Assembly (NCBI GenBank): GCA_030065025.1
Contig: JASJDY010000015.1
Coordinates: 2,281-66,280, forward strand
DNA length: 64,000 nucleotides
Direction: 5' to 3'
DNA from: Planctomycetota bacterium
GTDB taxonomy: Bacteria > Planctomycetota > PLA2 > JAEUHO01
The notes below the pieces were generated by a model that worked only from the letters and a program-made list of their open reading frames with translations, ran no database searches and was not told the DNA's origin. Position numbers and translations under genes: made by a program. Of this stretch, positions 1-53,537 are shown one piece after another. Position 1 is the first letter of the stretch, and every line of letters begins with the position of its first letter.

Positions 1-1
1 T

Positions 2-3000
2 GCCGACGAAGGAGCCCGTCCGCCCGAGAAGCACCCTGCCCGGGACGCCATCCTCGCCGCACGCGAGCGTCGAGCCCAGGCCCAGGAGGCTCTCGACGAG
101 CAGCTGGACGCGCCGCTCCCGGCCGCCGAGGTTGCTCGCATCCTCGGCGTGATCGCCGCCGATGACGAGGTGGCAGCGGCGACCGAGGCGTTCTTCCGTA
201 ACGGCAACGGCGATGTCGTCGGACCGGACGCCGACGCGCAGCGCGTCCTCGCCAAGGCTGCAGAAGCGCAGCGCTCCCCCACCGCCGTGGAAGCACGCAC
301 CGTCGCGCTCGCATTCATGGAGGCCGGACGCTTGCGCGCGTGGCTGCGCTGGCTGCGACGCGCGTTCGCCGCGGATCCCACCGACGTACGCAACGTCCAG
401 CCCCTGGCCGCCGCGCTCGTGGCGGCGCAGCGCCAGAAGGAGGCGCTGCTCGTTGTGTCGGCGCAGGAGGCGCCGGCCGACGCCGCCGTGCTCCAACTGC
501 GCGCGCAGGTGGCGACATGGCTCGGCCGCCTGCGGGTCGAGGCGTCTGCGCTGCAAGCGCTGCTCGCAGTGCAGGAATACGCGGGGAAGCGGGATCGACT
601 CATCGAGGTGCTGCGTGTGCTCGGCCGAAGCGCTGACGCCGTGCCTTACGCCAAGGCCCGCGCAGCGGCCGACCCCACGCGCGCCAACCAGGAGAGCGCC
701 GTGGCCCTGGCTCTCGAAGGCGGTCTGCTCGACGAGGCGCTGGCGATTCTCGAGGGACTGGCCGCGGGCGAGACGGACACCCGTGCGTGGCGTGAGCGCA
801 TCGTGCGCGTCGCGCTGAACGACCTGCGCCAGGATCGCGCGATCCAGGAGTTGCAGGTGCTCGTCCGGGAGCATCCGGATGGACGGTTCACGGACGAGGA
901 GGAGGGTCAGGCGTACGCCGACGTGCTGCAGGGGCTGCTGCGGGCGCGGGGGCGCGACGTGCAGCTCCTCGAACTGCTGAAGCAAAGACTGGCCGGCGAG
1001 CTTACGCCAGAACAGCGTCGCGCCACCGAGGACGAGGTGCTCTTCCTTGCCGAACAGCTCTCGCGCCCGGACGAGGCGATCGCCGTGCTACGTGCGCGGC
1101 TCGAGCGGACGTCCACCGCGGAGGCGTACATCCGCTCGTTCTTCGACTTCGACGCTGTCAAGCTGCCGGGGCACATCGAGAAGGGCGTCGCGCTGCTGGA
1201 GGCCCCCGAGACACCTCGTCAGCGCATGCGCGAGCTGTACCAACTGCTCGAAAAGCGCCTCACGGAGGCGCGACGCCGAGGCATCCTCGAGCGGCTGCTC
1301 GCACGCATGCCCGACGACCCATTCCTCGAAACCCGCCTCATGCTGCTGCTCGATGCGATCGATCCCGAAGCCAGCGCAGCACGCCTCGAGGCGCGCGCTC
1401 GGGCGAAGCCCGACGACGCTGCTCTCACGAGCCTGTGGGTGCAGCGAGCGTCGTGGATCGAGGATCTGGAGCAGCAGGTCCGCGCGCGCGAGGCACTGCG
1501 CGCGCTCGTACCGGACGACCTGAACAACGTCCGCATGCTGGCGGACATCTACGAAGCGCTGCAGCGCAAGGAAGACGCGCTCGCGGCGTGGCGCTTCCTC
1601 GCGGAGCAGGCCGGCGAGGGAACGGACATCGAAGGCCGCTTCGTCGCTGCGCTCCTCGGCAACGAACGCTACGAGGAGGCGCTCGAGATCGCACGCCGTC
1701 GGGCCGCCGCGGAGACTGCCGACGAGACCGACGCGCTGCAGCTTCTGACCGTGCTCATCGCGCTGCGGCGCTGGGAAGAGGCGCTGCCCATTCTCCGTGA
1801 CCGCGCACTCCGTCCGGACCCCGATCCCGGGGACCGCGAGCGCTACCTCGAGGTGCTGCTCGCCGCCGATCGCTTCCTCGAAGCGTTGCCGCTGCTGAAG
1901 GAACGTGCCGAAGCGGAAGGCGCGACCGACGACGACCGGGAGCGCTACATCGACGTCCTGCTCGCCGCCGAACAGTACGAAGAAGTCGTGCCGTTCCTGC
2001 GCGAGCGCGCGGATCGTTCGCGCGAGGACGAGCTGCGCTACTTGCATGTCCTGCAGGCGCTGGACCGGCGCGACGAGGTTCTCGAGGTGCTCCGCCGCCG
2101 GGCCGACGGGCCGGGCGGCACATGGGACGACCGTTTCGTGTACGCCGAGACGTTGCTCGGCGTCGAGCGCCAGGACGACGCGCTCGTCCAGTACGAGAAG
2201 CTGGAGGCCGAGCGTCCAGGGGACCCGCGCGTACTGCGCAGGCTGGCCGAGGTGCGCACGTGGACCGGCGATCCCGAGCGTGCGCTCGAGCCGGCGCGCG
2301 CCCTGCTCGCACGCCCGTACGACGCGGAGGACGAAGCAGCCCTGCGCGAGCGGGCCGTGCTGTCGTTCCTCGTCGGAGAGGCGTACACGGTTCTCGAGCG
2401 CGAGCGCGAAGCGCATGCCGCGTACTGCCGGGCGATCACGCTGTTTGAGCAGGGCGGCGCACTCTCGCCGCGAGAGCGTCGCAGCTATGCGCTGGCGCTG
2501 GCGCGCGTGGGCCGCATCGACTCGGCCGGCGTCGTGTTCGAGGCACTGGTCGAAGAGGACCCCGAGGATCTCTCCCTGCGGCTCGATCACGCGGACGCCT
2601 ACGTGAATGCCAAGCGCACGTTGCAGGCACGTCGCATCCTCGAGGCCGCGCGGCCGCTCGACGAGGACGCACCGCGCCTCTGGCGCGCCGACGCCGCCAT
2701 CGCCATGCAGGAGAAGCGCTACGAGGTCGCGGCAGGTCGACTGCGCAACGTAGTCGCCCGGAGCGAACCCGACGCCGGCCTCTATCGCGATCTCGGCTGG
2801 GCTTTCCGGCAGTCGGGTTGCTGGCGCGGCGCGCTGGGTTCGTGGTGCCGTTCCCTGCCGCTGGACTGGAACGACGACATCGCCTGGGAGATCGACCGGC
2901 TCCGCGCCGAGCTCGGACCGTATGCCAAGACGCACGCACGGCGCGCCTTCGCAGGTGACGACGAACGCACGCGCGTCGGCCTCTCGTTGCGCACGCCCCT

Positions 3001-3811
3001 GGCCGACGAACGCTGGAGCATCGCCCTGGATGTCGCTTGGGCCCGATTCGAGGGACCCGCTGCCGCCGTCGGTGGCACGGTCTCGGACGCGATCGGGATC
3101 GTGACGCTCTCGGCGCGGCGCCGCTTCGCCCGGCGCCACCACATCGAGGCCGGTGCAACGCTGATGGCCGACCGCGAGGCGGGCAGGGTGGTCGCACCGT
3201 TTGCCTCTGTTCGCCTCGAGACCATCGAGCCGTTCGCCTATGTCCAGCTCGAGGCGTTCGCCAACCGCCTGCTGGAGGACCCGGCGGGCGCCGTGGCGCT
3301 CGGCGGACGCCGCTCCGGCGTACGCGTGGAGGGTTGGCAGGACATCGGCCCGAGATGGTTCGTATCCGGTAGTTTGGCTTACGAAGACCTAGCGCTGGAC
3401 CTCCCGGGGGTCTCCGACCCCTCCGACGGCTTCGTCTCGTGGCGCGCGAGCGTCGGACGCCGCATATGGCTGGCGCCGTGTGCCTTGTCTGCCCGGCTGG
3501 ACTACACCGGCAGCCGCCTGCTGGACGATAGAGCCCTGGCAGGGTCGATTCCGTTAGGTGAGCGGTTCGACTTCATGACAGGTGCTCTGGCGCTGGAGCG
3601 CCGGATCGGGACACGGTGGGATGCGCAGATCGAGGCCTACGCGGGGGCTGACCTCGCAGGTCCAGACCTCCTCGGAGGGATCGAGGCCGCGCTCCGACTG
3701 CGTCTCCAGCGAGGCGTCCGACTCCGCTTCGCCGCCGGATACGGAAGCCAGGCCCGCTACCAGGACGGCGACTCCGGACACCTCGACGTCGAGCTCGAGC
3801 TCTTCCGCTGA
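2..3811 (+). CDS. pelB: PelB-like exopolysaccharide export scaffold: TPR-repeat region plus C-terminal porin-like domain. 5' partial, because the frame is open to the window edge; an internal GTG at 149 is the ORF-track start.
   Basis: A 1220-aa ORF with many TPR-like repeats, rich in Leu, Ala, Glu and Arg. The C-terminal ~300 aa alternates amphipathic strands typical of a beta-barrel. It sits immediately upstream of pelD, pelE, pelF and pelG homologs. There is no stop codon in frame 2 between position 2 and 149. Confidence 0.7.
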   Translation, partial: ADEGARPPEKHPARDAILAARERRAQAQEALDEQLDAPLPAAEVARILGVIAADDEVAAATEAFFRNGNGDVVGPDADAQRVLAKAAEAQRSPTAVEARTVALAFMEAGRLRAWLRWLRRAFAADPTDVRNVQPLAAALVAAQRQKEALLVVSAQEAPADAAVLQLRAQVATWLGRLRVEASALQALLAVQEYAGKRDRLIEVLRVLGRSADAVPYAKARAAADPTRANQESAVALALEGGLLDEALAILEGLAAGETDTRAWRERIVRVALNDLRQDRAIQELQVLVREHPDGRFTDEEEGQAYADVLQGLLRARGRDVQLLELLKQRLAGELTPEQRRATEDEVLFLAEQLSRPDEAIAVLRARLERTSTAEAYIRSFFDFDAVKLPGHIEKGVALLEAPETPRQRMRELYQLLEKRLTEARRRGILERLLARMPDDPFLETRLMLLLDAIDPEASAARLEARARAKPDDAALTSLWVQRASWIEDLEQQVRAREALRALVPDDLNNVRMLADIYEALQRKEDALAAWRFLAEQAGEGTDIEGRFVAALLGNERYEEALEIARRRAAAETADETDALQLLTVLIALRRWEEALPILRDRALRPDPDPGDRERYLEVLLAADRFLEALPLLKERAEAEGATDDDRERYIDVLLAAEQYEEVVPFLRERADRSREDELRYLHVLQALDRRDEVLEVLRRRADGPGGTWDDRFVYAETLLGVERQDDALVQYEKLEAERPGDPRVLRRLAEVRTWTGDPERALEPARALLARPYDAEDEAALRERAVLSFLVGEAYTVLEREREAHAAYCRAITLFEQGGALSPRERRSYALALARVGRIDSAGVVFEALVEEDPEDLSLRLDHADAYVNAKRTLQARRILEAARPLDEDAPRLWRADAAIAMQEKRYEVAAGRLRNVVARSEPDAGLYRDLGWAFRQSGCWRGALGSWCRSLPLDWNDDIAWEIDRLRAELGPYAKTHARRAFAGDDERTRVGLSLRTPLADERWSIALDVAWARFEGPAAAVGGTVSDAIGIVTLSARRRFARRHHIEAGATLMADREAGRVVAPFASVRLETIEPFAYVQLEAFANRLLEDPAGAVALGGRRSGVRVEGWQDIGPRWFVSGSLAYEDLALDLPGVSDPSDGFVSWRASVGRRIWLAPCALSARLDYTGSRLLDDRALAGSIPLGERFDFMTGALALERRIGTRWDAQIEAYAGADLAGPDLLGGIEAALRLRLQRGVRLRFAAGYGSQARYQDGDSGHLDVELELFR

Positions 3812-3893
3812 CGCCTCCGGGCGACCCGCCACCGGCCTCCGTCGCGCCCTCGTCGAGATCGGCATCCTCTACAGCGTCATCGTCGCGCTCGAG

Positions 3894-5600
3894 ATGATCG
3901 TGAATGAAGGGCGCGTCGGCGCCCTCGGCGCTCACCCCCATCCGTACTGGATCGTCGTGCTGCCGATGGCCGCCAGCCGCGGCACCATCGCCGGCATTCT
4001 CGCGGCACTCGTCGGCACCTCGCTCGAGGTCATCGGGCTCGCGCAGATCGGCCAGCTGAACCTGTCCACGTTGTTCGATCTCGGCCCGTTCGGCCAAGGC
4101 GTGCTGTTCTTCGGCGCGGCGTTCTTCATCGGCGAGATCCACGACTCGCACGCGAAGCGTCATCAGGACCTGGGCAAGGACCTCGACGAAGAACGCGAGC
4201 GGAGCGAGCGCCTGCAGCACGAGCGCGACGTTCTCGAAGCCGCGACGCACCACCTGCGCCGTACCGTGCAGGAGCGCCCGTCGCTCCGGCGCAGCCTCCT
4301 GGATGGCGCCGTGGGCATCGAGACGCACAGCCGGGAGGCGATCGCAGCGACCATCCTGGATCTTGCACACGAGCAGTGTCACGCGTCCATGGCGTCGATC
4401 TGGGTCGTGGACGGCGAGCAGCGCATCGACCTCATGCAGACGCACGGCTGGAGCGGCGACCAGGAGTCGCGGCGCATCGCGACGGTACGCGCGAGCGAGC
4501 ACGTCCGCGAGGTCATCCGAAACGCCGTCCCCCACAACAGCCTCCTCCAGACGAAGGCACCCGATCGCGACGAGCCGCTCCTCATCGCGCCGCTCTCCGA
4601 CGGCCGCGGTGTGCTCTGGGGACTCCTCTGTCTCGACGACCTCGATCCCGTGTACCTCACGACGGAGACCGCCGAGGTGTTCTTCGGCCTCGCCGAGTGG
4701 ATGACGGCGGCCCTCATGCGGCTCGACCGAGAGGAGCGTGACAGTGCGCTCCACGCCGACCTCCTCGAGCCCGAGTCGCTCGCAGAGCGACTGTGGCTGG
4801 AGTACGACCGCGCCGCCCGCTACGGAGGCCCGCTGCGCCTCATCGGCATCCACGTGGTGCCCGACGAGGCGGGTACGCGCGCCGCAACGGAGAAGGCGGA
4901 CGCCGCCCTGCTCGAGGCGCTCGCGGGCTTCCCGTTCGGCGAACGCCCGTATCGCTTCGGCTACCCGGGCTGCTACGTCCTCGCCGCTCCCATGATCCAC
5001 GACGACGACCTGGATGCGCTCCAGCGCAAGGTCGTCGCCGGCGCCGCCGAGGATGACGTGGCGCTCGAGACGTTCGTCGCCACGCTCGACGGCGAGGCCT
5101 CGGACCTCGAAGCGTTGCTCGATCAGTGTGCGCAGCGCTTCCGCGCTTCCGCGCATCTGCCGCTGGCGGCCGTAGCGCCCGTCCGGATCCCGGCGTCGCT
5201 GCAAGTCGGCGGGGCTCATGACCTCCGTGCGCGGCTCCAGGTCGAGATGGCCCTGGCCGAGCGCAACCACCGACCGCTCACCGCACTCCTGCTCCATACG
5301 GGCAGCGCCGGCCGCACCACCGAGCGTGCCCTCATTCTCGACGCAACGCGCGCCACCGGCGCGTTGCGTCCCGTCGACGGGCTCTTCCGCCTGCCCGACG
5401 GTCGTTTCGTTCTCTTGTTGCCGTTCACCGATGCCGAGGGCGCGCAGGTCACCGTCACCCGCTTCCTGCGCGTGCTCCAGGAGCGCAATCCCGACGCTTC
5501 CTATCTGCCGCTTCGCGTGAACCCCGCGACGCCCGAGCAGCTGGCCACTGATCTGGCCGGCCCGCACGCGCCGCGTGACTCCGGGGAGCCCGCCGCATGA
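3894..5600 (+). CDS. pelD: PelD-like c-di-GMP receptor: N-terminal TM helices, a GAF domain and a degenerate GGDEF domain (RYGGPLR instead of GGDEF).
   Basis: TM segments are followed by a GAF-like segment (ILDLAHEQCHASMASIWVV...LLCLDD) and a GGDEF-like segment with a degenerate active site (DRAARYGGPLRLIGIHVV). The gene order is pelB, pelD, pelE, pelF, pelG. The start is uncertain: the first canonical in-frame start after the pelB stop is ATG 3894, which would clip the first predicted TM helix. Confidence 0.55.
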   Translation: MIVNEGRVGALGAHPHPYWIVVLPMAASRGTIAGILAALVGTSLEVIGLAQIGQLNLSTLFDLGPFGQGVLFFGAAFFIGEIHDSHAKRHQDLGKDLDEERERSERLQHERDVLEAATHHLRRTVQERPSLRRSLLDGAVGIETHSREAIAATILDLAHEQCHASMASIWVVDGEQRIDLMQTHGWSGDQESRRIATVRASEHVREVIRNAVPHNSLLQTKAPDRDEPLLIAPLSDGRGVLWGLLCLDDLDPVYLTTETAEVFFGLAEWMTAALMRLDREERDSALHADLLEPESLAERLWLEYDRAARYGGPLRLIGIHVVPDEAGTRAATEKADAALLEALAGFPFGERPYRFGYPGCYVLAAPMIHDDDLDALQRKVVAGAAEDDVALETFVATLDGEASDLEALLDQCAQRFRASAHLPLAAVAPVRIPASLQVGGAHDLRARLQVEMALAERNHRPLTALLLHTGSAGRTTERALILDATRATGALRPVDGLFRLPDGRFVLLLPFTDAEGAQVTVTRFLRVLQERNPDASYLPLRVNPATPEQLATDLAGPHAPRDSGEPAA

Positions 5601-6526
5601 GCACCGGACGGGCATCCCTCTTCGTCGTGGCCATCGCCGCGGCACTCCTGGACATCGGCGCCCTGGTCCTGGGTGCCGATGGATCCTGGCTGGGGTATCT
5701 GATCGCCGTCACCGTTCACCTACTAGCAACCGAGCTGGTTCGCCACCGTGTCCACTCGGTCTGCGGTGACGGCGCATCAGGCACCCTGGCCGTCCTGGGC
5801 ACCTTCGCGGTGCCCGTCTTCGGGGCGTTCCTCGCCACCACCCTGCACGTGCCCGAGGAGGCGGGCTCGGCGGACCGGGCGAGCCGCATCCTGGAGGAGT
5901 ACGACGCGTTCGTGCACTACCGGGAGGAGCCCCACCGGCCCTCGCCCTTCACGGGGAACTTCCAGGAAGACCTGGTCACGTTCGCCTCGGTCGAGAGCCA
6001 TGGCGTCGTGATGCGCAGCGGCACGAAGGCACAGAAGCGTGAGGTGCTCAGCCGGCTCGTGGAATCGGGCCGTCCGGACCTCATCGCCCAGGTCCGCGGA
6101 GCGCTCACGGACTCCGACCCGGAGGTCCGCCTGCTCGCCTACGGCGAGCTCCTGCGGCTGGAGTCGAAGCTGTACGCCGACCTGCAGGAGGCGGCGGATC
6201 GCGCCGAGGGCGATCCGACGGCCGATGGCCTGCGCGCCGCCGTCGTCCTGGCCCACCGCCGGCTGGCCACGTCCGGCGTGCTCGATGACGCCATGAGCGA
6301 TTGGCACGCGGGCGAGGCCCAGCGCATGGAGGAGGCGATCGGCTCGATGGTCTCGACGGGTGCACCCACCGGCACCGTCGATCCCGAGCAGATGGCCGCG
6401 GCAGCCTTCCGCGAGCGCTCGTTCGCGTACGTGCGCGCCTTCGGCCGCGCCCTGGCCAAGGAGGGGAAGGACGTGCCCGAGTGGATCCGCGCCCTCGATC
6501 CGGAAGTCCGTGAGGAGGTCGCATGA
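5597..6526 (+). CDS. pelE: PelE-like inner-membrane protein with N-terminal TM helices and a helical, TPR-like cytoplasmic domain.
   Basis: 309 aa with 2-4 N-terminal TM helices and then an alpha-helical region. It shares a 4-nt overlap with both the pelD stop and the pelF start, and its position between pelD and pelF matches the Pel operon. Confidence 0.5.
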   Translation: MSTGRASLFVVAIAAALLDIGALVLGADGSWLGYLIAVTVHLLATELVRHRVHSVCGDGASGTLAVLGTFAVPVFGAFLATTLHVPEEAGSADRASRILEEYDAFVHYREEPHRPSPFTGNFQEDLVTFASVESHGVVMRSGTKAQKREVLSRLVESGRPDLIAQVRGALTDSDPEVRLLAYGELLRLESKLYADLQEAADRAEGDPTADGLRAAVVLAHRRLATSGVLDDAMSDWHAGEAQRMEEAIGSMVSTGAPTGTVDPEQMAAAAFRERSFAYVRAFGRALAKEGKDVPEWIRALDPEVREEVA

Positions 6527-8019
6527 CGGCCGATGTCTGCCTGGTCCTGGAAGGCACCTACCCGTACGTGCCGGGTGGTGTCTCGGCGTGGGTGCACACG
6601 CTGGTCACGTCGCTACCCGACCTGACGTTCCACATCCTCCACCTGAGCGCCGCGCCGGGTTCGTACCCCAAGGGCATGCGCTATGAGATGCCGTCCAACG
6701 TCGTCGGACTCGACGAAGTGCACCTGCAGACCGGCGACGAGGATCTGCTGACCCGCTTCTCGGCGAAGCAGGTCGACGAGGAAGCGATCGCGTGCTTCGC
6801 AGACTTCTTCGACCAGGTCCGCGCAGGCGATGGCGATGCCTTCGCCGCGTTCTTCGACCTCGTCAACGACCCGGAGCGTGCCCGCCTGATGCGCCGGATG
6901 CTGCTGCAGTCCCAGGACGCCTGGGACGTGATGGTCGCTGCGTACCGCGAGGAGGCACCTGAGCGCAGCTTCCTTCGCTTCGTGTGGACGTGGCGCTTCG
7001 CGTTCCTGCCGCTGTTCAACGCGCTCGCCGCGCCTGTGCCCGACGCCCGCTGCTTCCACACGGTCTGCACGGGCTACTCCGGGATCCTCGCCGCCGGCGC
7101 CAAGGCGAAGACGGGCCGCCCGATGATCCTCACGGAGCACGGCATCTACACCCGCGAGCGACGGATCGACATCCAGAGCGCGGACTGGATCCCCGACCAT
7201 GCCGCCCACGAGTCGCTCGTGCCGCGCACGCCGCCCTTCTTCCGTGCGTTCTGGATGCGCCAGTTCGAGGTCATGAGCCGCATCTGCTACGAGTCCGCCG
7301 ACGGCATCTTCACGCTCTATGAGGGCAACCGGCGACTGCAGATCGGCGACGGCGCGGACAAGGACCTCATCCGCATCGTGGTCAACGGCATCGACCTCGA
7401 GCGCTACGGCAACGCACCCGCCGACGCTGAGACGCGCGACCCGAACGCCTTCACGATCGGCTTCATCGGCCGCGTGTGTCCCATCAAGGACGTGCGCACG
7501 CTGCTCCAGTCGATGCGCCTCGTCGTGGACGAGCTGCCGCACGCGCGCTTGCGCATCTGCGGGCCGCTGGACGAAGCCGAGTACGTCGACGAGTGCCGTC
7601 GGCTCACGCGGACACTGCGCTTGGAGCAGCACGTCGTCTTCGAGGGCCTGGTGGACGTCCCCCGCGTCCTGGGAGCGCTCGACCTGTGCGTCCTCTCGAG
7701 CATCTCCGAGGCGCAGCCGCTCACGATCCTCGAAGTCGGTGCGCGCGGCATCCCCGTCGTGGCGACGGACGTCGGTGCGTGCAGCGAGCTGCTCGGCGGG
7801 CGCACGCCCGAGGACCGTGCACTGGGCGACGGTGGGCTGGTGGTCCCGATGGCCACACCGGGCGCGATGGCGCGGGCCCTCGTGAAGCTCGCCCGCGACG
7901 AGGAGCTGTGTCGCTCCATGGGTGCCGCGATGCGTCAGCGCGTGCAGCGCTTCTACGACGTCGCCGACATGGTTCGCGAGTACGGCGACATCTACCGCAG
8001 TCACGTGGAGGCGGCCTGA
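6523..8019 (+). CDS. pelF: PelF-like GT4 family glycosyltransferase.
   Basis: 498 aa. It carries the GT4 signature region (ISEAQPLTILEVGARGIPVVATDVGACSELL) and a Rossmann-like C-terminal half. The size and position match PelF. Confidence 0.8.
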   Translation: MTADVCLVLEGTYPYVPGGVSAWVHTLVTSLPDLTFHILHLSAAPGSYPKGMRYEMPSNVVGLDEVHLQTGDEDLLTRFSAKQVDEEAIACFADFFDQVRAGDGDAFAAFFDLVNDPERARLMRRMLLQSQDAWDVMVAAYREEAPERSFLRFVWTWRFAFLPLFNALAAPVPDARCFHTVCTGYSGILAAGAKAKTGRPMILTEHGIYTRERRIDIQSADWIPDHAAHESLVPRTPPFFRAFWMRQFEVMSRICYESADGIFTLYEGNRRLQIGDGADKDLIRIVVNGIDLERYGNAPADAETRDPNAFTIGFIGRVCPIKDVRTLLQSMRLVVDELPHARLRICGPLDEAEYVDECRRLTRTLRLEQHVVFEGLVDVPRVLGALDLCVLSSISEAQPLTILEVGARGIPVVATDVGACSELLGGRTPEDRALGDGGLVVPMATPGAMARALVKLARDEELCRSMGAAMRQRVQRFYDVADMVREYGDIYRSHVEAA

Positions 8020-8020
8020 C

Positions 8021-9427
8021 ATGGCGGGTATCGGCTTCGAGCTGAAACGCCTCATCACTGAGGAAGGCGGCCTGATCTCGCGCGTGCGGGGCTATGCGAT
8101 CGCAAGCCTCGTGTCCGCAGGTCCGTGGATCGTCACGATCGTGGGGCTGGTCTGCATCAGCCTCACGGCACCGGTCTTCCTGGACCAGGACACGTACGAG
8201 GCGTTCCGCGCGATCGTGACGTACGCATTCGCGTTCAGCCTGATCGTGGTCGGCGCAGTGCAGATGAGCTTCACGCGCCGGGCGGCGGACCTGCTGTACT
8301 CGAAGCACTACAAGCGTCTGCTGCCGGCCCTGGCGCACGGGTCGAAGATCATCGCCATCGTGCAGGGCTTCATCGGGACGTTCTTCTGCGCGCTGGCGGG
8401 TCTGCCCGTCGCCCTGTCGATCGCCTCCGTGACGCTCTACATCGTCATCAGCCTCACGTGGCTAGCGCTCATCTGGCTCGGCGCAACCAAGGAGCACAAG
8501 AGCGTGCTCCGCTCCTATCTCTACGGCGGCCTGGTGTCCTTCGCCGGTGTGTCGCTGGCCGCTGCCGGAGCCTGGGGCATCGACCAGAGCGCGGCCTCGC
8601 TCGTGGGCGCGTACGCCCTGGGGCAGGGCCTCACGCTCGTGCTGCTCCTGCGAGCCGCCGTGAAGGCGCTCGACATGGGTGGCGTCGAAGACGGCAGCAT
8701 CATGCGGAGCGTCCGGACGTACCCGCGCCTGGCGCTGGTCGGCTTGCTCTACAACACCGCCATCTGGGCGGACCAGATCGTCTTCTGGTGCGTGGACGGC
8801 GTGGGCACCCACGTCCGCTTCCACCCGCTCTACGACACCTGCAAGTTCCTCGCGTACGCGTCGGTGATCCCTTCGCTCGCACTGATGCTGGTGCGCGTCG
8901 AGACCAGCTTCTACGAGTGCTACCGTGCGTTCTACGGCAGCATCCTGCGGGGCTTCCCGCTCGAGACGATCGAGCGCCGCAAGCGGGCCATGCTGGAGGA
9001 CCTGCGCGAGAGCACGGTCCGGCTGCTGCGCATCCAAGGCGCCGTGACCCTGGTGATGCTGTTGCTCGCCCCGACGATCATCCGCCTGCTCGGTCTGGGC
9101 GACGCGGCCGTCGACGTGCTGAGGGCCTGCTCACTCGCGGCTTTCTTCCACGTGATGCTGCTGATCGTCATCCTCGTGCAGATGTACTTCGACCTCCGCA
9201 GCAGCGCGCTGTGGACCTCACTCGTGTTCCTGGTCGCCAACACCGTGCTCGCGCTGTGGAGTGTCGGGGCGGGTGTCAACACCTACGGCATTGGCTACGC
9301 CGCGGCGGCATTCCTCGCGCTGTGCTTCGCCTACGCCACGCTGGTACGCAACTACGACCGCCTCGAGTTCCTGTCGTTCACGCAGCGCCCGGTCGAGATC
9401 GATCCGTTGCCCGAGAGCGCACGCTAG
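8021..9427 (+). CDS. pelG: PelG-like polytopic membrane protein (PST/MATE-like, about 12 TM).
   Basis: The N-terminus MAGIGFELKRLITEEGGL is characteristic of PelG. The 468-aa product is highly hydrophobic with about 12 TM segments. The ATG lies 1 nt after the pelF stop. Confidence 0.75.
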   Translation: MAGIGFELKRLITEEGGLISRVRGYAIASLVSAGPWIVTIVGLVCISLTAPVFLDQDTYEAFRAIVTYAFAFSLIVVGAVQMSFTRRAADLLYSKHYKRLLPALAHGSKIIAIVQGFIGTFFCALAGLPVALSIASVTLYIVISLTWLALIWLGATKEHKSVLRSYLYGGLVSFAGVSLAAAGAWGIDQSAASLVGAYALGQGLTLVLLLRAAVKALDMGGVEDGSIMRSVRTYPRLALVGLLYNTAIWADQIVFWCVDGVGTHVRFHPLYDTCKFLAYASVIPSLALMLVRVETSFYECYRAFYGSILRGFPLETIERRKRAMLEDLRESTVRLLRIQGAVTLVMLLLAPTIIRLLGLGDAAVDVLRACSLAAFFHVMLLIVILVQMYFDLRSSALWTSLVFLVANTVLALWSVGAGVNTYGIGYAAAAFLALCFAYATLVRNYDRLEFLSFTQRPVEIDPLPESAR

Positions 9428-10482
9428 CGTTCTTCGAACGCGTGCTCCGGCACCCGATCCAGCGGGGTGCGACTCACGCACGGCACGAACCCGAAGCCGC
9501 GGCTCGTCCGCAGTGCCTCCGCGACGTCGTCCTGCTCGCGCGCGTAGTCCGCGGTGAACACCGGCAGGCCCGCAGCGCGGTAGCGGCTGAGCAAGGCGGC
9601 GAGCGCCTGCATGTTCCACAGGTCGCCTGCGGGCCGCCTACGACCGCCGGCCGCAGGCGCTTCCCAGTCGTCCGTCGCGCTGCCCTGGAAGACGAGTCCC
9701 TCCTGCGCCACCCCGTCGAACCAGCCGGTGCTCTCGGGGATACGGTCGATGAGGTCGCCCGGGTTCTGCACGACGACGAGGAATCCAGGCCGGCTCTCCC
9801 GGGCGTAGGCACGAAGATCACGCACGAGCTCCGCCATGGCACGCGTGGGATCGACGCCTTCGCGCTTGGCCGTGGCCATGACCACGGGATCCGCGTAGCC
9901 GAGCACCCAGTCCAGGTAGACGCCGTCGAAGCCCTGGTCGAGCATGCGATCGAGCAGGGCACCGGAGGATCCAAAGAGCAGGGGACGCCAGCCGGGATCC
10001 CAGTACGCCACGGGGAAGTTCCCCTTCCAGCCCTCGGGATCCGGGCACAGCACGAAGCTCGTGCGCCCCTCGTCCGTGCGCTCCTTCGGCCGCCAGGCCT
10101 CCTGCCAATAGGCGCGGTAGTCCTCGGCCTGGCCGACGTTCAGATAACCCAGGACGAGCGGTCTCGCCTCGGCGCGCGACTGGAGCCGCTTCACGACCCC
10201 GCGCGTGGGGAAGTCTTCCTGCCCGCGCACCGTGTCGGTGGCCTCCAGCACGTACAGGTCGACGTTCGACCGCACGAGCCGATCCACGGCGCCTTCACGG
10301 TCGAGTCCCTGGAGCTGGTAGACCCACGACCGGACACCTGCGAGCGCACGCATCTGACGCTCGACCTCATCGCGCCTGGTCGCCTCAGGCGTACCCCCGG
10401 GCATGTCCGCGAGGAGCGCGTAGAGACCGAGTGCCGCAGCGGCGGCGAGGATCACGGAAGGCACGAGGACGCGGGGCGACAC
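9424..10482 (-). CDS. pelA: GH114-family glycoside hydrolase, PelA hydrolase-domain-like, membrane-anchored; no deacetylase domain.
   Basis: 352 aa with an N-terminal signal anchor. It has a TIM-barrel GH114-like sequence (YLDWVLGYADP, LVVVQNPGDL). It is convergent with pelG, and its stop overlaps the pelG stop. Confidence 0.65.
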   Translation of the reverse strand: MSPRVLVPSVILAAAAALGLYALLADMPGGTPEATRRDEVERQMRALAGVRSWVYQLQGLDREGAVDRLVRSNVDLYVLEATDTVRGQEDFPTRGVVKRLQSRAEARPLVLGYLNVGQAEDYRAYWQEAWRPKERTDEGRTSFVLCPDPEGWKGNFPVAYWDPGWRPLLFGSSGALLDRMLDQGFDGVYLDWVLGYADPVVMATAKREGVDPTRAMAELVRDLRAYARESRPGFLVVVQNPGDLIDRIPESTGWFDGVAQEGLVFQGSATDDWEAPAAGGRRRPAGDLWNMQALAALLSRYRAAGLPVFTADYAREQDDVAEALRTSRGFGFVPCVSRTPLDRVPEHAFEER

Positions 10483-10576
10483 GCCCCCGTTCTATCCGCC
10501 GAGGGGCCTGCCGCGCACAGGGATGAGACGCATCTTCACCGGCTGCACGTGTTCCACGCCGCCCCGGCCAGACTGG

Positions 10577-11644
10577 TCAAGCAGGCTCGAGGAGACGGCC
10601 GGCGGGGATCTTCTTGTCGGGTCGCGACGGCCGTCGCACGCCGCCGTCGGTGCGACGGGATCCCGCCAGCGCATCCTCGATCACCCAGCGCCAGCGCCGG
10701 TCGCCCAGGAAGGACCATGAGGCCGGGTCCTCGAGGATCTGCCTCTCGAAGTAGGCGAACATGACCCGCATGAGCTCGTCGGCGTCGGTGCTGCGCACGG
10801 GCTCGCCGCAGTCGAGCTCGATGCCGGTGCGACGCGTGTGCGTGAAGCCCGGGACGACGGGCACGCCCGCCTTCGCCGCCATGCGGCTGGCCCAGGGCGC
10901 GACACTCGCCACGCCGCCGAACATCGGCACCAGCACGCGGTCGCTATCCCGACAGATGCGGTCCACGGTGGCCACGACCAGCGTGCCGGAGCGCAACAGG
11001 CGCAGGCAGGCGCGCGTCAGTGCGAAAGGATTGCCGTCGCGGACGAGCAGCACCTTCACGCCCAAGCTCTCGTACACGGCGAGGGCCTGCCGCGTGCGCG
11101 CGATGGAGCGGGGGTTCCTGGCGAGCAGGACCGTGGGCACGCGCCGGCTGACCTCGAGGGACATGAGGACGGCACCCGTGCAGTGCGGCACGCACAGCAC
11201 ACACCCACCGTGCTCTGCCAGGAGGCCCGCCATCAGGTCGGGCTGCCGGATCCGCAGGTGCGCGGCCGTTTCGTCGGGTCGTCCACCGAGAGCGTACGAG
11301 CCCCACTGCAGCATGCGACGCACGCCGTCCACGAAGTCGCGGTACATGCGGCGCGGCGGATGGTGGTAGCCGGCACGGGCCGCGAGCGTCGACAGGGTCC
11401 GGCAGGCGCTCAGCAGCTGGTTGCCCGGTAGCGGCGCGGCCAGCTGGACGGGTACCGAGAAGAGCCTCAGCCCCCCCCGCTGCACCGGAGCCGGCAGTTT
11501 GCGCGCGCCGGTCGCCAGGAAGCTCGAGACCCAGAGCTTGGCGAGCGCCCCGCGGAGGCGACGGCGCGCTCGGGACGGCTTCTCGACGACCTCGAGCGGT
11601 CCGAGGTGGAGCGCCGGTGAATGGAAGACCTCGGACTCCGGCAT
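10577..11644 (-). CDS. LpxL/HtrB-family (LPLAT) lipid A-type acyltransferase paralog.
   Basis: It resembles the lauroyl/myristoyl acyltransferase family and is a paralog of the adjacent gene. The start was chosen at the internal Met (MPESEVF). The upstream part of the ORF is Arg-rich and not protein-like. Confidence 0.55.
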   Translation of the reverse strand: MPESEVFHSPALHLGPLEVVEKPSRARRRLRGALAKLWVSSFLATGARKLPAPVQRGGLRLFSVPVQLAAPLPGNQLLSACRTLSTLAARAGYHHPPRRMYRDFVDGVRRMLQWGSYALGGRPDETAAHLRIRQPDLMAGLLAEHGGCVLCVPHCTGAVLMSLEVSRRVPTVLLARNPRSIARTRQALAVYESLGVKVLLVRDGNPFALTRACLRLLRSGTLVVATVDRICRDSDRVLVPMFGGVASVAPWASRMAAKAGVPVVPGFTHTRRTGIELDCGEPVRSTDADELMRVMFAYFERQILEDPASWSFLGDRRWRWVIEDALAGSRRTDGGVRRPSRPDKKIPAGRLLEPA

Positions 11645-11667
11645 GGCCCGGAGTCTAGCCCGAGAAC

Positions 11668-12660
11668 TCAGTCCGGATCGTGTTCGCTGTAGGCGGGGTA
11701 GCGGCCCCGCTCGGCCGTGGGACGGCTCTTGAATCGCTTCAGGCGCCACTGCCAGAGCTTCGGATCCTCAAGGACGTACTCCTCGAGCACCGCATTGATC
11801 CGCCGCATCACCTCGAAGGGCCGCTGCTCCTCCGGAAACGCCTCGACTCCGAGCGTCACGTCCTCGTGGGTGACGATGCGGTAGCGCCCGTCGCTTCCGG
11901 GCAGGCAGAACATCGGGTGGATGGGCTTGTCGTAGCGCAGCGCGGCCCAGGCCGCGAGAGGCGTTGTGCGGGCTTCCAGGCCGAGGAACGGCACCCAGAT
12001 GCCACCCTGGCGCCGGCGGACATTGCGGTCGACCAGCAGGGCTGCGATGCCCCCGTCGGAGACGACGCGGGCGACGGCACGTGCTCCCCCACGGCGCAGC
12101 GCCATCTGCAGGTCGCCGTGACTGCGTAGCCGCGCCAGCATGTCGTTGATCAGCTCGTGCGGTACGGCCTCGGCCAGGAACACGGTCGGGGGCAGATGGG
12201 GAAAGAGGATGCGCAGGGCGAGCAGGAGCTCCCAGTTGCCGACGTGCCCCGACACGATGACGCCTCCTTCCTTGAAGAGGCGTTGCAGGTGCGGGGTCTG
12301 CTCGAAGTCCTCCGGCACGTCGACCCAACGACGATAGCGCTCGGGCGTGACCGGCTGCAGGTAGGCGAGCAGCAACGCCGAGCGCGCGAGGCTGCGCCAC
12401 GCGGACTGGACGATGCGCTTGCACTCCGAGCGCGGGAAGTCGGGTCCGAAGACCGCCCGCAGGTTCGCGTACGCGGCACGACGCGCGCGCCCGTTGAGGA
12501 GCGCCAGGACGGTGCCGAACGCATCGCCTAGGCGGAGGACCCAACGAGCGGGAAATGCCATCAGGATCCGCACGCCGGCGACGAGCAACGTGAGCAGCAC
12601 CTGCTGCGCGAGGCGGGCGCGGCGCAGACGCTGGAGGATGGTCGAGGGTGCGCGGGACAC
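11668..12660 (-). CDS. LpxL/HtrB-family lipid A biosynthesis acyltransferase.
   Basis: It has an N-terminal TM anchor, an HxxNWE-type acyltransferase motif (SGHVGNWELL) and a conserved C-terminal region (DPKLWQWRLKRFK) typical of HtrB/LpxL. Confidence 0.65.
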   Translation of the reverse strand: MSRAPSTILQRLRRARLAQQVLLTLLVAGVRILMAFPARWVLRLGDAFGTVLALLNGRARRAAYANLRAVFGPDFPRSECKRIVQSAWRSLARSALLLAYLQPVTPERYRRWVDVPEDFEQTPHLQRLFKEGGVIVSGHVGNWELLLALRILFPHLPPTVFLAEAVPHELINDMLARLRSHGDLQMALRRGGARAVARVVSDGGIAALLVDRNVRRRQGGIWVPFLGLEARTTPLAAWAALRYDKPIHPMFCLPGSDGRYRIVTHEDVTLGVEAFPEEQRPFEVMRRINAVLEEYVLEDPKLWQWRLKRFKSRPTAERGRYPAYSEHDPD

Positions 12661-12700
12661 GTAGGCGGGATCCTATGCGATGCCCTTCGGCCGCGCCTGC

Positions 12701-14350
12701 TCAGCGCGCGGGTGCGTCGGCCGGAATGACGTAGACCGGGGCGGGGGTCAGCGCCAGCCGCAGCATGCCGTCCTTCACCTGGACGCGGCGTCGTTTCGGT
12801 GCCTCGGATCCCAAACGCAGCGACTCGAGGACGTAGTGGCCACTGGGCAGCGGTATGAGCACGTCGCGTACGGGCAGGGGCTCGCCAGGCGCGCCGGCCC
12901 AGGAGAGTCGCGCGTCGAGCATGAGCAAGGCGATCCACGGTCGCGATCGCTTCGAGGGAAGGCGGAACACGACGCTGCGTCCCGGCGCGCCGATGGAGGT
13001 CTCGCCTGCCGACCGGTGCGTACCCAGCAGACGGTGCATCTGCCGGAGGGCCCACCAGGCGGGCGTACGTCGAACGCCCGCAGCCGGCGCGTCGCGGTTC
13101 GCAGCCTCCGCGAGGAACCCCTGATCGCCCGCCTCGCGACCCCCGGGATGCCCGGCGGGCAATCGGTCGAAGGGAGCCAGGGCGAGCACGGCGTCGGCAC
13201 CGGCGGCCCGCGCCCGCGCCACACCGCGCACGAAGTCGTAGGCCTGACCTCGCCGCAGCCAGGCCTTGGCCTCGGCATGACGGCTGTGCGCGGGATTGCG
13301 GGCAGCCGGCAGCCATCGGCGCCGAAGCCTGACCTCGTCCCCCTTGGGCGCGACCGCGCCGGGGACGCGCGCGCCACCGAGCTTGCGCGTCGGGTTGTCG
13401 ACCAGCCAGATCCCGGTGTCTCCGCCGGCATGCTCGTCGAGATGCCGACGCAGGAAGCGCAGGTTGGCGACGTCGTCGGCAAGGTGCGCATTGCCTGCGT
13501 GCGCGAGCACCTCGTACAGCCGCGGCATCGCGAGCAGACGGCGGATGTGCTCGAACCGGCGCGTCACCTCCAGCCTCGCCAGCGGTGCGTCGGCCGGCAC
13601 GAGCTGTCCGATGCGGTAGTCCCACTCCCGTCGGTCGGGGTGCGGGGCGTGGCCCGTTGCTGCCAGGTCGACCGAGGCCGTGACGATGCGCGTGGTCTCG
13701 GCAGCCGACTTCGCACCCAGGCCCGCATGGTGCAAGAGACGGAGGTAGTCCTCGGCGCTGCCAAGCCACGCGGCGGGCTCGAGGCGCCCGAGGATCTGCA
13801 CGTGGCGAACAGCCCCACGGAGCCCGGGCATGTCGGCGCGTCCGTCCCCGTCGTACCGCTCGACGACATCGCGCACGAAGCGCTCCCACGCCTTCCAGCG
13901 GCCGGGCTGGGGCGGTGCACAGCCGCCGGCCGTGCGCAGGGCCGCGTCCGACTCCGCTGCCGGAAGCGTGCGACGCACGCGCTGGGCCCAGGCCGAGGCC
14001 TTGACGGGGACGCCGGCCCACCCACTGCGGGGACTGAGCACGAGCACCGGCTCGAGACCGCTCAGCTGCCAGACGAGCACGGCCTCGTCGAGGGTCTTCC
14101 AGTCGTAGCGGGGCGGGGCGGACCTGGGCGGCTGGGCCTCGATCGTGCCCCAGTCGATCGGCGTGGTGCGGGCCAGGACCCGGCCCAGGTCGGCAAGCCG
14201 CTCGAGGTGCGCAGCATCCCGATAGGCGGGATCGAAGGCGTCGAACGGCCCGAGCCCGAGGAAGGGGACGTCGGGTCGCCGGTCCCCCTCTTCCGCGCTC
14301 ACGGCTCCTGCGGTGAGGACGACGAGGCACAACGCGAGGACGGTTCTCAT
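12701..14350 (-). CDS. Secreted hypothetical protein (signal peptide MRTVLALCLVVLTAGAVSAEE).
   Basis: The ORF has a clear Sec signal peptide. Its composition is protein-like, whereas the overlapping plus-strand ORFs are Arg/Gly/Pro-rich. The start was set at the signal-peptide Met. Confidence 0.5.
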   Translation of the reverse strand: MRTVLALCLVVLTAGAVSAEEGDRRPDVPFLGLGPFDAFDPAYRDAAHLERLADLGRVLARTTPIDWGTIEAQPPRSAPPRYDWKTLDEAVLVWQLSGLEPVLVLSPRSGWAGVPVKASAWAQRVRRTLPAAESDAALRTAGGCAPPQPGRWKAWERFVRDVVERYDGDGRADMPGLRGAVRHVQILGRLEPAAWLGSAEDYLRLLHHAGLGAKSAAETTRIVTASVDLAATGHAPHPDRREWDYRIGQLVPADAPLARLEVTRRFEHIRRLLAMPRLYEVLAHAGNAHLADDVANLRFLRRHLDEHAGGDTGIWLVDNPTRKLGGARVPGAVAPKGDEVRLRRRWLPAARNPAHSRHAEAKAWLRRGQAYDFVRGVARARAAGADAVLALAPFDRLPAGHPGGREAGDQGFLAEAANRDAPAAGVRRTPAWWALRQMHRLLGTHRSAGETSIGAPGRSVVFRLPSKRSRPWIALLMLDARLSWAGAPGEPLPVRDVLIPLPSGHYVLESLRLGSEAPKRRRVQVKDGMLRLALTPAPVYVIPADAPAR

Positions 14351-14426
14351 GTGCCGAGGGACTCCCATGGGCGCAGCATAGCCGTCCGAGCGACGGCCCG
14401 TCCCCCCCTGCAGGGAGCATGGCGCC

Positions 14427-15452: not shown

Positions 15453-15526
15453 GACGGCCTCCTGCCCTCGCACGGTGCGCTCGCCGTAGGCGCGACCCGC
15501 GCCGTGACGGCGGGTACCCTGCCGCC

Positions 15527-16753: not shown

Positions 16754-16759
16754 GCGGGT

Positions 16760-17995: not shown

Positions 17996-18040
17996 GGGGC
18001 ACCTCTAGATGCCACCACGCTAGAGCACGCCACCGACAGG

Positions 18041-19171: not shown

Positions 19172-19246
19172 GCCGTAGCCTAGCCGGACCGCCTGCACGA
19201 GCGCTCGCCGTGTGCGATACTGGGGCGCTCGACTTGGAGATCCCGC

Positions 19247-34218: not shown

Positions 34219-34231
34219 GGGGAGGGACGGA

Positions 34232-36154: not shown

Positions 36155-36166
36155 GGCGAGGCGTAC

Positions 36167-46724: not shown

Positions 46725-46887
46725 GCGAGGCCCAGCCGGTGCGTACGTATCGGCGGATCCGGGCGGCATCTGCACCGCCAACCGGCATTCGCTTGCCGGA
46801 TTGCCCTCGGTTCTCCGATTCGGCCGTTTCTGCACGCTCAAGCGGCCGAGGGACCCACCGATCCACACGAACAGGAGGCAGATCCCC

Positions 46888-53460: not shown

Positions 53461-53537
53461 ACGCTGCTGCGCCGCTCAGGATGGTACCGGATCGCGCACG
53501 GCTGCGGGAGGCGCGGCTCGGATCGGCGCTGGATGGG

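Follow-up and report, generated by a model that had tools for sequence, protein, structure and literature searches.

A complete Pel-type gene cluster of Planctomycetota with a split PelA and no pelC found at the locus

Introduction

Can a Pel-type polysaccharide be exported by PelB in the absence of the lipoprotein PelC, and would such a polymer be deacetylated? PelC, which sits at the outer membrane and belongs to the GNA1162 family, is essential in Pseudomonas aeruginosa and has been called a hallmark of Gram-negative Pel systems (PMC12141448). Its role is debated, and the proposals include an electrostatic funnel, a brace for the TPR region of PelB and a platform for PelA; the exporters BcsC and PgaA need no lipoprotein (PMC12141448). 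The question is raised by a complete gene cluster for a Pel-type biofilm polysaccharide in a Planctomycetota genome, which was analysed in a stretch of 64,000 nucleotides (the window) and in the matching public contig of a Planctomycetota MAG (L001). An initial annotation of the window held that both pelC and the PelA deacetylase are missing. Here, we describe the components of the cluster, discuss what became of these two claims and outline how the polymer might be made and exported.

Layout of the Pel module

The module comprises seven genes in the order pelA(DA)-pelB-pelD-pelE-pelF-pelG, followed by a convergent gene for a GH191-type hydrolase. All seven reading frames are intact, and the Pel genes overlap or abut each other (GTGA, ATGA, ATGA, then a 1-nt gap). 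Within the window, the gene calls bear out the order pelB-pelD-pelE-pelF-pelG with a convergent 352-aa hydrolase gene, as initially annotated. The features are as follows (window coordinates, unless L001 is given).

L001 2040-4148, outside the window and upstream of pelB: pelA(DA), secreted deacetylase, 702 aa (match to PDB 9cgy)
2..3811, open at the window edge, + strand: pelB, partial (residues 88-1356 of 1356 aa), with TPR-family Pfam matches; full length at L001 4145-8215
2879..3808, + strand: C-terminal 16-strand beta-barrel of PelB, residues 1047-1356, the last 310 aa (AF2 and Foldseek)
3894 (ATG)..5600, + strand: pelD as annotated, 568 aa (GAF Pfam match, phmmer, AF2/Foldseek)
about 4332-4751, + strand: GAF domain of PelD (Pfam match)
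about 4770-5150, + strand: GGDEF-like domain 1 of PelD (AF2 and Foldseek, hhalign)
about 5214-5555, + strand: GGDEF-like domain 2 of PelD (AF2 and Foldseek, hhalign)
5367..5378, + strand: RPVD, a motif resembling the RxxD inhibitory site, in the second GGDEF-like domain (PelD alignment)
5597..6526, + strand: pelE, inner-membrane protein, 309 aa (phmmer to Azospirillum PelE, conserved position)
6523..8019, + strand: pelF, GT4 glycosyltransferase, 498 aa (NF038011; DUF3492 and Glycos_transf_1)
8021..9427, + strand: pelG, inner-membrane exporter-family protein, 468 aa (PF16933)
9424..10482, - strand: convergent gene for a TM1410/GH191-type putative endo-alpha-1,4-galactosaminidase, 352 aa (PF03537, PDB matches)

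Lipid A acyltransferase genes adjoin the locus, and the host is a diderm bacterium.

The class of the locus is indicated by PelF and PelG. PelF, composed of a DUF3492 and a Glycos_transf_1 domain, reaches 451.5 bits against the PelF family NF038011 (curated cut-off 100) and hence scores as a PelF equivalog; it is approximately 40% identical to annotated PelF proteins on plasmids. PelG covers the full length of the PF16933 profile with 385 bits (cut-off 29). With both proteins above the curated family cut-offs, the locus is, as judged by sequence, of the Pel type. The assignments of PelD, PelE and the TPR region of PelB draw on weak similarity together with gene order and should be read as putative. 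In PelE, hydrophobic segments at the N terminus are followed by a C-terminal part made up of helical repeats. A HEAT_2 match is weak, and similarity to known proteins is low (phmmer E-values: Azospirillum PelE 8.6e-8, two further sequences 0.013). Its gene lies between pelD and pelF in all loci compared, and shares an ATGA overlap with each neighbour.

The PelB exporter

The initial annotation described a PelB-like protein of at least 1270 aa that runs past the window edge, and the public contig supplies the remainder: full-length PelB (L001 4145-8215) has 1356 aa and is recorded as [quoted passage not shown]. A membrane anchor at its N terminus, whose coding sequence falls outside the window, is followed by a long stretch of TPRs and, at the C terminus, by a barrel. 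A sequence search against solved structures returned generic TPR matches only and no solved PelB. The last 310 residues, where the initial annotation had called for a check on a barrel, are modelled by AF2 as a barrel of 16 strands (pLDDT 80.9, pTM 0.77). In Foldseek the best solved match of this model is P. aeruginosa PelB from the PelBC complex (9h80_M, E 1.8e-12, TMq 0.73), followed by BcsC (6tzk) in second place, and by PgaA (4y25) in seventh place by E-value (TMq 0.72). Judging from the predicted model, the protein matches solved PelB by fold and not by sequence.

The rough extracellular ends of the modelled barrel carry 18 Asp/Glu versus 7 Arg/Lys residues, and are in this respect comparable to the anionic exit of P. 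aeruginosa PelB (PMC12141448). Plug positions have also been described for PelB (PMC12141448), and equivalent positions may exist in the planctomycete protein by analogy. The periplasmic rim of the barrel is rich in arginine (e.g., RRRFARR, GRR, ERRIGTR); in P. aeruginosa PelB, rim arginines contact Asp119 of PelC. Rim charge was considered as a trait separating loci with and without PelC and was rejected: the mean number of Arg and Lys residues is 5.4 in PelC-positive and 6.3 in PelC-negative loci with overlapping ranges, and the comparison is uninformative either way as to a hidden PelC partner.

PelD and its duplicated GGDEF-like domain

PelD is related to Azospirillum PelD (phmmer E 4e-15), and Foldseek matches its AF2 model to P. 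aeruginosa PelD (4etz/4dmz/4dn0) at about 1e-6; the Pfam family PelD_GGDEF gave no match at E <= 0.01. The protein is built from transmembrane helices, a GAF domain and two tandem GGDEF-like domains, which hhalign relates to each other with a probability of 94.9% (E 4.7e-8). Thus, PelD carries an extra, duplicated GGDEF-like domain, and both copies are degenerate. The RxxD motif is the c-di-GMP site of P. aeruginosa PelD. In the PelD alignment it is present only in the second GGDEF-like domain and is lost from the first in this genome. By analogy, RPVD at 5367..5378 is a candidate c-di-GMP contact, where the ligand may bind.

The start of pelD was initially placed less than 90 nt after the pelB stop. 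This is accurate for the annotated ATG at 3894, which lies 82 nt from the stop at 3811, and probably not for the true start. Since the codons for the first transmembrane helix, which is conserved in PelD, precede ATG 3894, and the only in-frame ATG, GTG or TTG codons of this upstream part are at 3621 and 3582, pelD probably begins at ATG 3621 and overlaps the 3' end of pelB instead of starting 82 nt after it.

PelA is split into two genes

The window itself contains a single PelA-related gene, that of the 352-aa hydrolase, and this protein lacks an esterase domain. This is what favoured the initial reading of a Pel-like polymer that is made without deacetylation, the deacetylase module of PelA being missing. 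The apparent loss is due to the window edge, which cuts off the upstream pelA(DA) gene. A gene for a 702-aa PelA-type deacetylase overlaps the pelB start by 4 nt and lies about 256 nt outside window position 1. The 702-aa protein carries a signal peptide and aligns to residues 283-837 of PelA (PDB chain 9cgy_A) with an E-value of 2e-54; it had no match in a Pfam scan even at E = 10, and its identity came from the PDB sequence search. All seven catalytic or metal-binding residues are kept, namely H281/D283/D285, H354/H358, E474 and H512, corresponding to H526/D528/D530, H600/H604, E723 and H761 of P. aeruginosa PelA (roles in PMC12022489). Their spacing is canonical (69 residues from D285 to H354, 38 from E474 to H512). 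The protein is of the CE21 type and retains the reductase-like and beta-rich domains of PelA; its alignment starts at PelA residue 283, and it showed no hydrolase domain. The gene occupies the same position in seven of seven Planctomycetota loci. Given this adjoining gene, its intact active site and signal peptide and its conserved position, we attach next to no probability to a system that lacks the PelA deacetylase. Nor is the 352-aa hydrolase the only PelA-like gene, as had been stated.

The hydrolase itself was described as PelA-like, a view that was not confirmed. It scores 72 bits against PF03537 and 117 bits against TIGR01370, below the cut-off of 181. In the PDB it matches the founding GH191 members Env-GH191 (9ep5_A, E 1.5e-24) and TM1410 (E 3.7e-20); the hydrolase domain of PelA was not among its matches at E < 0.01. 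The protein is closest to the TM1410/GH191 type, not the PelA (GH166) type, and is a putative galactosaminidase. In GH191 a catalytic Asp and Glu are placed on a (beta/alpha)8 barrel. Env-GH191, a member of the TM1410/GH191 type, has been shown to cleave Pel, and its catalytic residues were reported as D323/E391 (PMC12054363, also the source of the family assignment). The predicted catalytic residues here, Asp191 (9910-9912) and Glu261 (9700-9702), align with chain positions D155 and E223 of Env-GH191. The hydrolase has an N-terminal hydrophobic segment, and the stop codon of its gene overlaps that of pelG. Taken together, PelA is split into two genes, a deacetylase gene upstream of pelB and a separate hydrolase gene downstream of pelG.

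A remnant that is decaying or no longer functions, or a system for some polymer different from Pel, has to be considered in view of PelD, PelE and PelB, which are very divergent from characterised proteins, the failure of PelD_GGDEF to match and the finding of neither a UDP-GalNAc epimerase gene nor a diguanylate cyclase gene in the window. Against this stand the intact reading frames of all seven genes, the conserved catalytic residues of deacetylase and hydrolase, a layout that is kept across relatives with 25-71% PelB identity, the equivalog score of PelF and the fact that the deacetylase and hydrolase families act on alpha-1,4-GalNAc/GalN chains. We therefore regard this explanation as improbable.

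Search for PelC

The initial claim that pelC is absent stands for the locus and for the 68 kb examined with the PelC HMM. The 82-nt gap between the pelB stop and the annotated pelD ATG leaves no room for a pelC gene. In six-frame translations of the 64-kb window and 4.4 kb upstream, the best E-value was about 1 with a three-sequence seed HMM and 40 with an iterated profile of 33 sequences. The 10-kb surroundings of six other Planctomycetota pel loci gave no significant match either, with E-values no better than 0.2 for the seed HMM and no better than 16 for the iterated profile. Genuine PelC sequences reach 1e-35 or lower, and the E-values from 88 loci have a bimodal distribution, with one group at or below 1e-35 and the other at or above 2, so that the negatives are no near misses. 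The initial annotation had named pelC and a deacetylase-bearing pelA, upstream or elsewhere, as the finds that would speak against it: the deacetylase gene is there, and no pelC was detected in 68 kb.

Substitutes for PelC were also considered. A lipobox scan of L001 for a lipoprotein in the module yielded one implausible antisense ORF. A 157-aa lipoprotein encoded after pelG in a related locus (L007) was rejected as a candidate, since it bears no relation to PelC and none of the other loci encodes it.

Related loci and the distribution of pelC

Related loci were gathered with a PelF alignment, and 88 of them were scored with the PelC HMM. The gene order found here recurs in L006, L007 and L008, whose PelB proteins are 44%, 25% and 71% identical to the present one, and in L009-L011, and the 10 kb to each side of these loci contain no pelC. 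Flanking genes differ among the Planctomycetota pel loci, and therefore the conserved unit is exactly the Pel module. In 16 loci outside the phylum, the PelB barrel gene and pelD are 33-253 bp apart, and the fetched stretches contain no pelC. PelC-less loci include those of cultured isolates, e.g., Roseospira goensis and Paeniroseomonas aquatica.

In this sample, PelC accompanies all ten loci with a fused PelA; deacetylase-only loci have PelC in 16 cases and lack it in 22. The association (Fisher p = 9e-4) is not independent evidence, as the fused loci are close to each other in the PelF tree, nine of the ten in a single region and the remaining one (L085) nearby. The pattern agrees with a published proposal in which PelC may assist in positioning the large bifunctional PelA. 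Tentatively, and at somewhat less than even odds, Pel export without pelC could be normal and functional in many diderm lineages, including all sampled Planctomycetota and members of the Alphaproteobacteria, Acidobacteriota, Kiritimatiellia and others. The PelC ring and the fused bifunctional PelA might in that case be specialised features of a clade that consists mainly of beta- and gammaproteobacteria, and planctomycete PelD might have gained a second copy of its c-di-GMP receptor domain by duplication, with the RxxD motif shifted to the new copy.

The competing explanation is a mechanistically canonical system, in which an unlinked PelC, encoded elsewhere in the genome, still rings PelB. 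The genome is a MAG, of which the pelC search covered 68 kb, and in other loci pelC is found upstream of pelA (L013 and L036) or 5 kb downstream of pelG (L038). The Arg-rich periplasmic rim of the barrel would suit such a partner, with the proviso that rim charge does not separate PelC-positive from PelC-negative loci, and so would the essentiality of PelC in P. aeruginosa (PMC12141448). Yet, pelC lies within 10 kb in none of seven Planctomycetota loci with PelB identities down to 25% and unrelated flanks, 16 loci in other phyla are likewise without it, and all other Pel components are tightly clustered and translationally coupled. An unlinked PelC is thus rather unlikely, while carrying appreciable weight.

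Proposed mechanism and implications

The reading that we prefer, with a probability of roughly 0.6, is that the product of the cluster is a Pel-like polymer in a partly deacetylated form, which is exported via PelB alone, as in BcsC and PgaA. We infer the polymer chemistry, the control by c-di-GMP and the independence from PelC as follows. PelF would polymerise a GalNAc-rich chain at the inner membrane together with PelD, PelE and PelG, where PelD, with its two tandem degenerate GGDEF-like domains and RxxD in the second only, would act as the c-di-GMP receptor. The secreted stand-alone PelA deacetylase, presumably docked on the TPR scaffold of PelB, would partly deacetylate the chain in the periplasm, and the polymer, now cationic, would exit through the 16-strand PelB barrel. 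A separate GH191-type galactosaminidase, either membrane-anchored or secreted, might trim the polymer. No PelC ring would be involved, and PelB would act on its own like the TPR-barrel exporters BcsC and PgaA.

PelC-less systems with PelB, a deacetylase and a synthase complex would make it possible to test the purpose of PelC directly by comparison. Moreover, Pel-type matrix genes reach into the Planctomycetota, and the split deacetylase/hydrolase arrangement known from Gram-positive bacteria is common in diderms. Otherwise, the locus is an ordinary member of a widespread, little-described Pel variant.

Comparison with known systems

The planctomycete cluster shares with the P. aeruginosa pelABCDEFG operon PelF, PelG, a putative PelE and a putative PelD with transmembrane helices, GAF and degenerate GGDEF domains, as well as a PelB in which TPRs are joined to a 16-strand barrel, a CE21 PelA deacetylase with identical catalytic residues and, except for pelC, the gene order. 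It differs by the lack of pelC at the locus, by a split PelA, where the deacetylase is devoid of GH166 and hydrolysis is assigned to a separate convergent gene of the GH191 type, and by the second GGDEF-like domain of PelD.

A stand-alone deacetylase, a separate hydrolase gene and the lack of pelC at the locus are also features of Bacillus cereus, which harbours pelDEA(DA)FG and an unlinked pelA(H) (PMC7112168). Gram-positive loci of this pelDEA(DA)FG type, however, have no genes for export across an outer membrane and thus also lack PelB, there being no outer membrane, whereas the diderm planctomycete locus keeps a full PelB with TPR region and barrel. In addition, the deacetylase described here retains the reductase-like and beta-rich domains of PelA (residues 283-837), in contrast to that of B. 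cereus.

With the exporters of cellulose (BcsC) and PNAG (PgaA) the system shares a periplasmic TPR scaffold and a 16-strand barrel on a single polypeptide and, in the reading preferred here, operation without a lipoprotein ring. These exporters serve other synthase systems and other polymers, and hence the likeness concerns the mode of export and not family membership.

Finally, in Azospirillum-type alphaproteobacterial loci (L004, L060, L068) a deacetylase-only PelA gene heads the operon as it does here, and no sequences from beyond the Planctomycetota came closer to the present PelD and PelE than theirs. These loci differ in that pelC, annotated as a GNA1162 family protein, is located between pelB and pelD, and in that PelB is split into two genes.

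Organization of the pel locus

Genes were called from six-frame open reading frames (ORFs), third-position GC content and translations; the G+C content is about 70% across the window. ORFs and translations bear out the order pelB, pelD, pelE, pelF, pelG and the convergent 352-aa gene described in the initial annotation.

Genes of the pel locus (window coordinates, strand, identity)
2 to 3811, +, pelB-like open frame (ORF, third-position GC, translation)
annotated ATG 3894, end 5600, +, pelD-like gene (same ORF analysis)
5597-6526, +, pelE-like gene (ORF analysis)
6523-8019, +, pelF (ORF analysis; NF038011)
8021-9427, +, pelG (ORF analysis; PF16933)
9424-10482, -, convergent gene for a 352-aa hydrolase (ORF analysis; PF03537)

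Adjacent pel genes are joined by ATGA overlaps or 1-nt spacing, and pelG and the hydrolase gene overlap at their stop codons. PelF scores 451 bits against NCBIfam NF038011 (cut-off 100) and PelG 385 bits against PF16933 (cut-off 29); the Pfam/NCBIfam scan returned a GAF domain alone for the PelD-like protein and TPR families alone for the PelB-like protein.

Window positions 1-16526 and positions 4405-20930 of a public locus, L001 (GCA_029980125.1, contig JARPMZ010000020.1), differ at 17 bases in 16.5 kb; L001 was located through an exact match to the PelE-like protein. The window thus comes from a second, near-identical assembly, and both represent the same population. L001 adds 4.4 kb to the left of the window edge; this assembly's PelB-like protein bears the name [quoted passage not shown].

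Deacetylase and hydrolase

In L001 a gene for a 702-aa protein (2040-4148) precedes pelB, and its stop overlaps the pelB start. The protein carries a Sec-type signal peptide and has zero Pfam matches, even at E = 10, but its residues 72-635 match PelA 283-837 of P. thermotolerans (solved structure 9cgy_A, E 2e-54), which is all of PelA except the N-terminal hydrolase domain. In an alignment that includes three orthologues from planctomycetes and two canonical PelA proteins, H281-x-D283-x-D285, H354-x3-H358, E474 and H512 stand opposite H526/D528/D530, H600/H604, E723 and H761 of P. aeruginosa PelA, with identical spacings. The latter residues supply the metal triad and the catalytic base and acid in a family now termed CE21 (PMC12022489). 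The initial annotation had assumed a missing deacetylase and possibly an undeacetylated polymer; this does not hold, since a PelA-type deacetylase gene lies directly upstream of pelB, and the inference is an artefact of a window that starts after that gene. No CE4 gene was found in the remaining 53 kb of the window.

The closest solved relatives of the 352-aa protein are Env-GH191 (9ep5_A, 1.5e-24) and Thermotoga TM1410 (3.7e-20), enzymes assigned in 2025 to the new CAZy family GH191; Env-GH191 cleaves Pel and favours stretches rich in GalN (PMC12054363). No PelA hydrolase chain appears among the solved-structure matches at E < 0.01; the protein is not an orthologue of the PelA hydrolase (GH166). 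Asp191 and Glu261 align with the predicted catalytic Asp and Glu. Canonical loci carried by Burkholderia and Pseudoalteromonas plasmids also have stand-alone hydrolase genes of this kind after pelG, in convergent orientation in Pseudoalteromonas. Canonical loci with a bifunctional PelA often harbour an extra stand-alone GH114/GH191-type gene just past pelG (L003 13049-13960, L005 12862-13686), and the alphaproteobacterial locus L042, with a deacetylase-only PelA, has three in tandem (12837-16054).

The PelB exporter

The full pelB gene product comprises 1356 aa (L001 4145-8215). Sequence comparison with solved structures yielded generic TPR matches alone. The last 310 residues, modelled with AF2 from 4 homologues, form 16 strands (mean pLDDT 80.9, pTM 0.77), and among solved structures Foldseek ranks PelB from the PelB-PelC (PelBC) complex, determined by cryo-EM, first (9h80_M, E 1.8e-12, TMq 0.73), followed by BcsC at ranks 2-3 and PgaA (4y25, TMq 0.72) at rank 7. 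The model thereby supports a PelB-like C-terminal barrel. Long extracellular loops of the model connect strands 7-8, 11-12 and 15-16, where P. aeruginosa PelB carries Plug-I, Plug-O and the gating Plug-S (PMC12141448); the modelled loops may be equivalent to these plugs. A barrel profile searched against 1.84 billion proteins retrieved 94 cluster representatives, most of 1150-1440 aa with a C-terminal barrel, and the window PelB is a member of a distinct but sizeable PelB subfamily.

Absence of pelC from the locus

Only 82 nt separate the annotated pelD ATG from the pelB stop, which leaves no space for pelC. A PelC seed HMM (three sequences from annotated canonical plasmid loci, one labelled GNA1162 family protein) gave a best E of ~1 over six-frame translations of the window and L001, and PelC was not found in the remaining 53 kb of the window. 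On this point the initial annotation stands. Nor did the seed HMM find PelC in the three nearest planctomycete relatives of the locus (L006, L007 and L008), whose PelB proteins are 44%, 25% and 71% identical to the window PelB; gene order there is pelA (deacetylase)-pelB-pelD-pelE-pelF-pelG, as here, and the flanking genes are unrelated. In L007, the most divergent planctomycete relative, pelG is followed in place of the hydrolase by a 157-aa lipoprotein (20211-20684; lipobox LVAGC) with a repetitive, probably helical sequence, which has no sequence relationship to PelC and is missing from the other loci.

A PelF-alignment scan with one genome per species added 80 loci from many phyla, annotated with iterated local HMMs. 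The final PelC profile (33 sequences) separated bimodally, with E-values of <= 1e-35 or >= 2. All seven Planctomycetota loci form one clade in a PelF neighbour-joining tree, possess a deacetylase-only PelA and lack pelC within 10 kb. Outside this clade, pelC is missing from the fetched stretch at 16 loci in which 33-253 bp separate the PelB barrel gene and pelD; among these are Roseospira goensis JA135 and Paeniroseomonas aquatica, both isolates, as well as MAGs from Acidobacteriota, Kiritimatiellia, Minwuia and others. pelC is present in about 30 loci, among them 10/10 with a fused hydrolase-deacetylase PelA, versus 16 with and 22 without pelC among deacetylase-only loci (Fisher p = 9e-4); as the PelF tree places nine of the ten fused loci in one group and the remaining one close by, this association is largely a lineage effect. 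Two tandem pelC paralogues lie between pelB and pelD in a Chromatiales MAG (L061 6146-7329) and a Gammaproteobacteria MAG (L074 6151-7331).

The best-supported reading is that the cluster encodes a functional, synthase-dependent Pel-type system. PelF, with PelD, PelE and PelG, would synthesize the polymer, the stand-alone periplasmic PelA would partially deacetylate it, PelB would export it and the separate GH191-type hydrolase would trim it. With no PelC ring involved, the exporter would act like BcsC or PgaA, which work without a lipoprotein according to the PelBC authors (PMC12141448). The main rival explanation is a pelC encoded elsewhere in the genome, unlinked to the locus: pelC is displaced within the locus at L013, L036 and L038, so absence from the locus is not absence from the genome. 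An analysis of barrel rim charges was uninformative on an unlinked pelC.

A duplicated PelD receptor domain

Planctomycete PelD is longer than canonical PelD and aligns with an extra C-terminal domain. In its AF2 model (pLDDT 71.9), two alike alpha/beta domains come after a GAF domain, and the model matches P. aeruginosa PelD structures at ~1e-6. Profile comparison of the two domains (94.9% probability, E 4.7e-8) indicates that the receptor domain is duplicated.

Duplicated domains of PelD (window coordinates, strand, identity)
4770-5555 (residues 293-554), +, tandem degenerate GGDEF-like domains (canonical PelD has one)

In this genome the second copy retains the c-di-GMP-site motif RxxD as RPVD (5367-5378), and the first has lost it; in the more distant relatives L007 and L009-L011 it occurs in the first copy, also or only there. 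The conserved first transmembrane helix is encoded at ~3825-3893, 5' of the annotated ATG 3894, and in-frame ATG/GTG/TTG codons occur upstream at just two positions, 3621 and 3582. Hence, the 3' end of pelB and the start of pelD probably overlap by 190-230 nt, or pelD uses a non-canonical start. In a second planctomycete subclade (L009-L011), PelD reaches 920-992 aa (e.g., L010 ORF ~5700-7126) through low-complexity, acidic, proline-rich N-terminal extensions of several hundred residues, which have no counterpart in canonical PelD.

Other genes in the window

Further features (window coordinates, strand, identity)
10577-12672, -, two adjacent lipid A biosynthesis acyltransferase-family (LpxL-like) genes, directly downstream of the hydrolase gene
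27769-38776, +, MoxR AAA ATPase, DUF58, BatA and VWA cluster (Bat/aerotolerance-like)
40647-47258, -, giant protein of ~2200 aa with at least 14 SdrD B-like repeats and carboxypeptidase-regulatory-like domains
46180-48441, +, candidate ORF for a phosphate-selective-porin-like barrel, overlapping the giant gene
51931-53475, -, protein combining DACNG and DACNH sensor domains with a DisA-type diadenylate cyclase domain

The LpxL-like pair is consistent with this planctomycete having an outer membrane that bears LPS, and the giant repeat protein is probably a surface adhesin. Within the Bat-like cluster, an overlapping long ORF candidate (28200-33329) encodes TPR and BamB/PQQ-like repeats. The DisA-type protein suggests c-di-AMP signalling. 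The window contains no diguanylate cyclase gene, although c-di-GMP is presumably needed for the Pel system.

Comparison with known systems

A 2025 study of the PelBC complex names PelC as a hallmark of Pel systems in Gram-negative bacteria (PMC12141448). Passages of a 2020 operon survey describe locus losses as frequent in pel operons; those retrieved by term search do not single out pelC-less diderm loci, and the term “Planctomyc” is absent from its main text. Within an incomplete coverage of the literature, we found no paper on PelC-less diderm pel loci or planctomycete Pel. The locus belongs to a widespread, little-described class and is useful chiefly for comparative work, as a natural case, on the role of PelC. 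In Gram-positive pel loci PelA is likewise split into a deacetylase and a separate hydrolase (PMC7112168).
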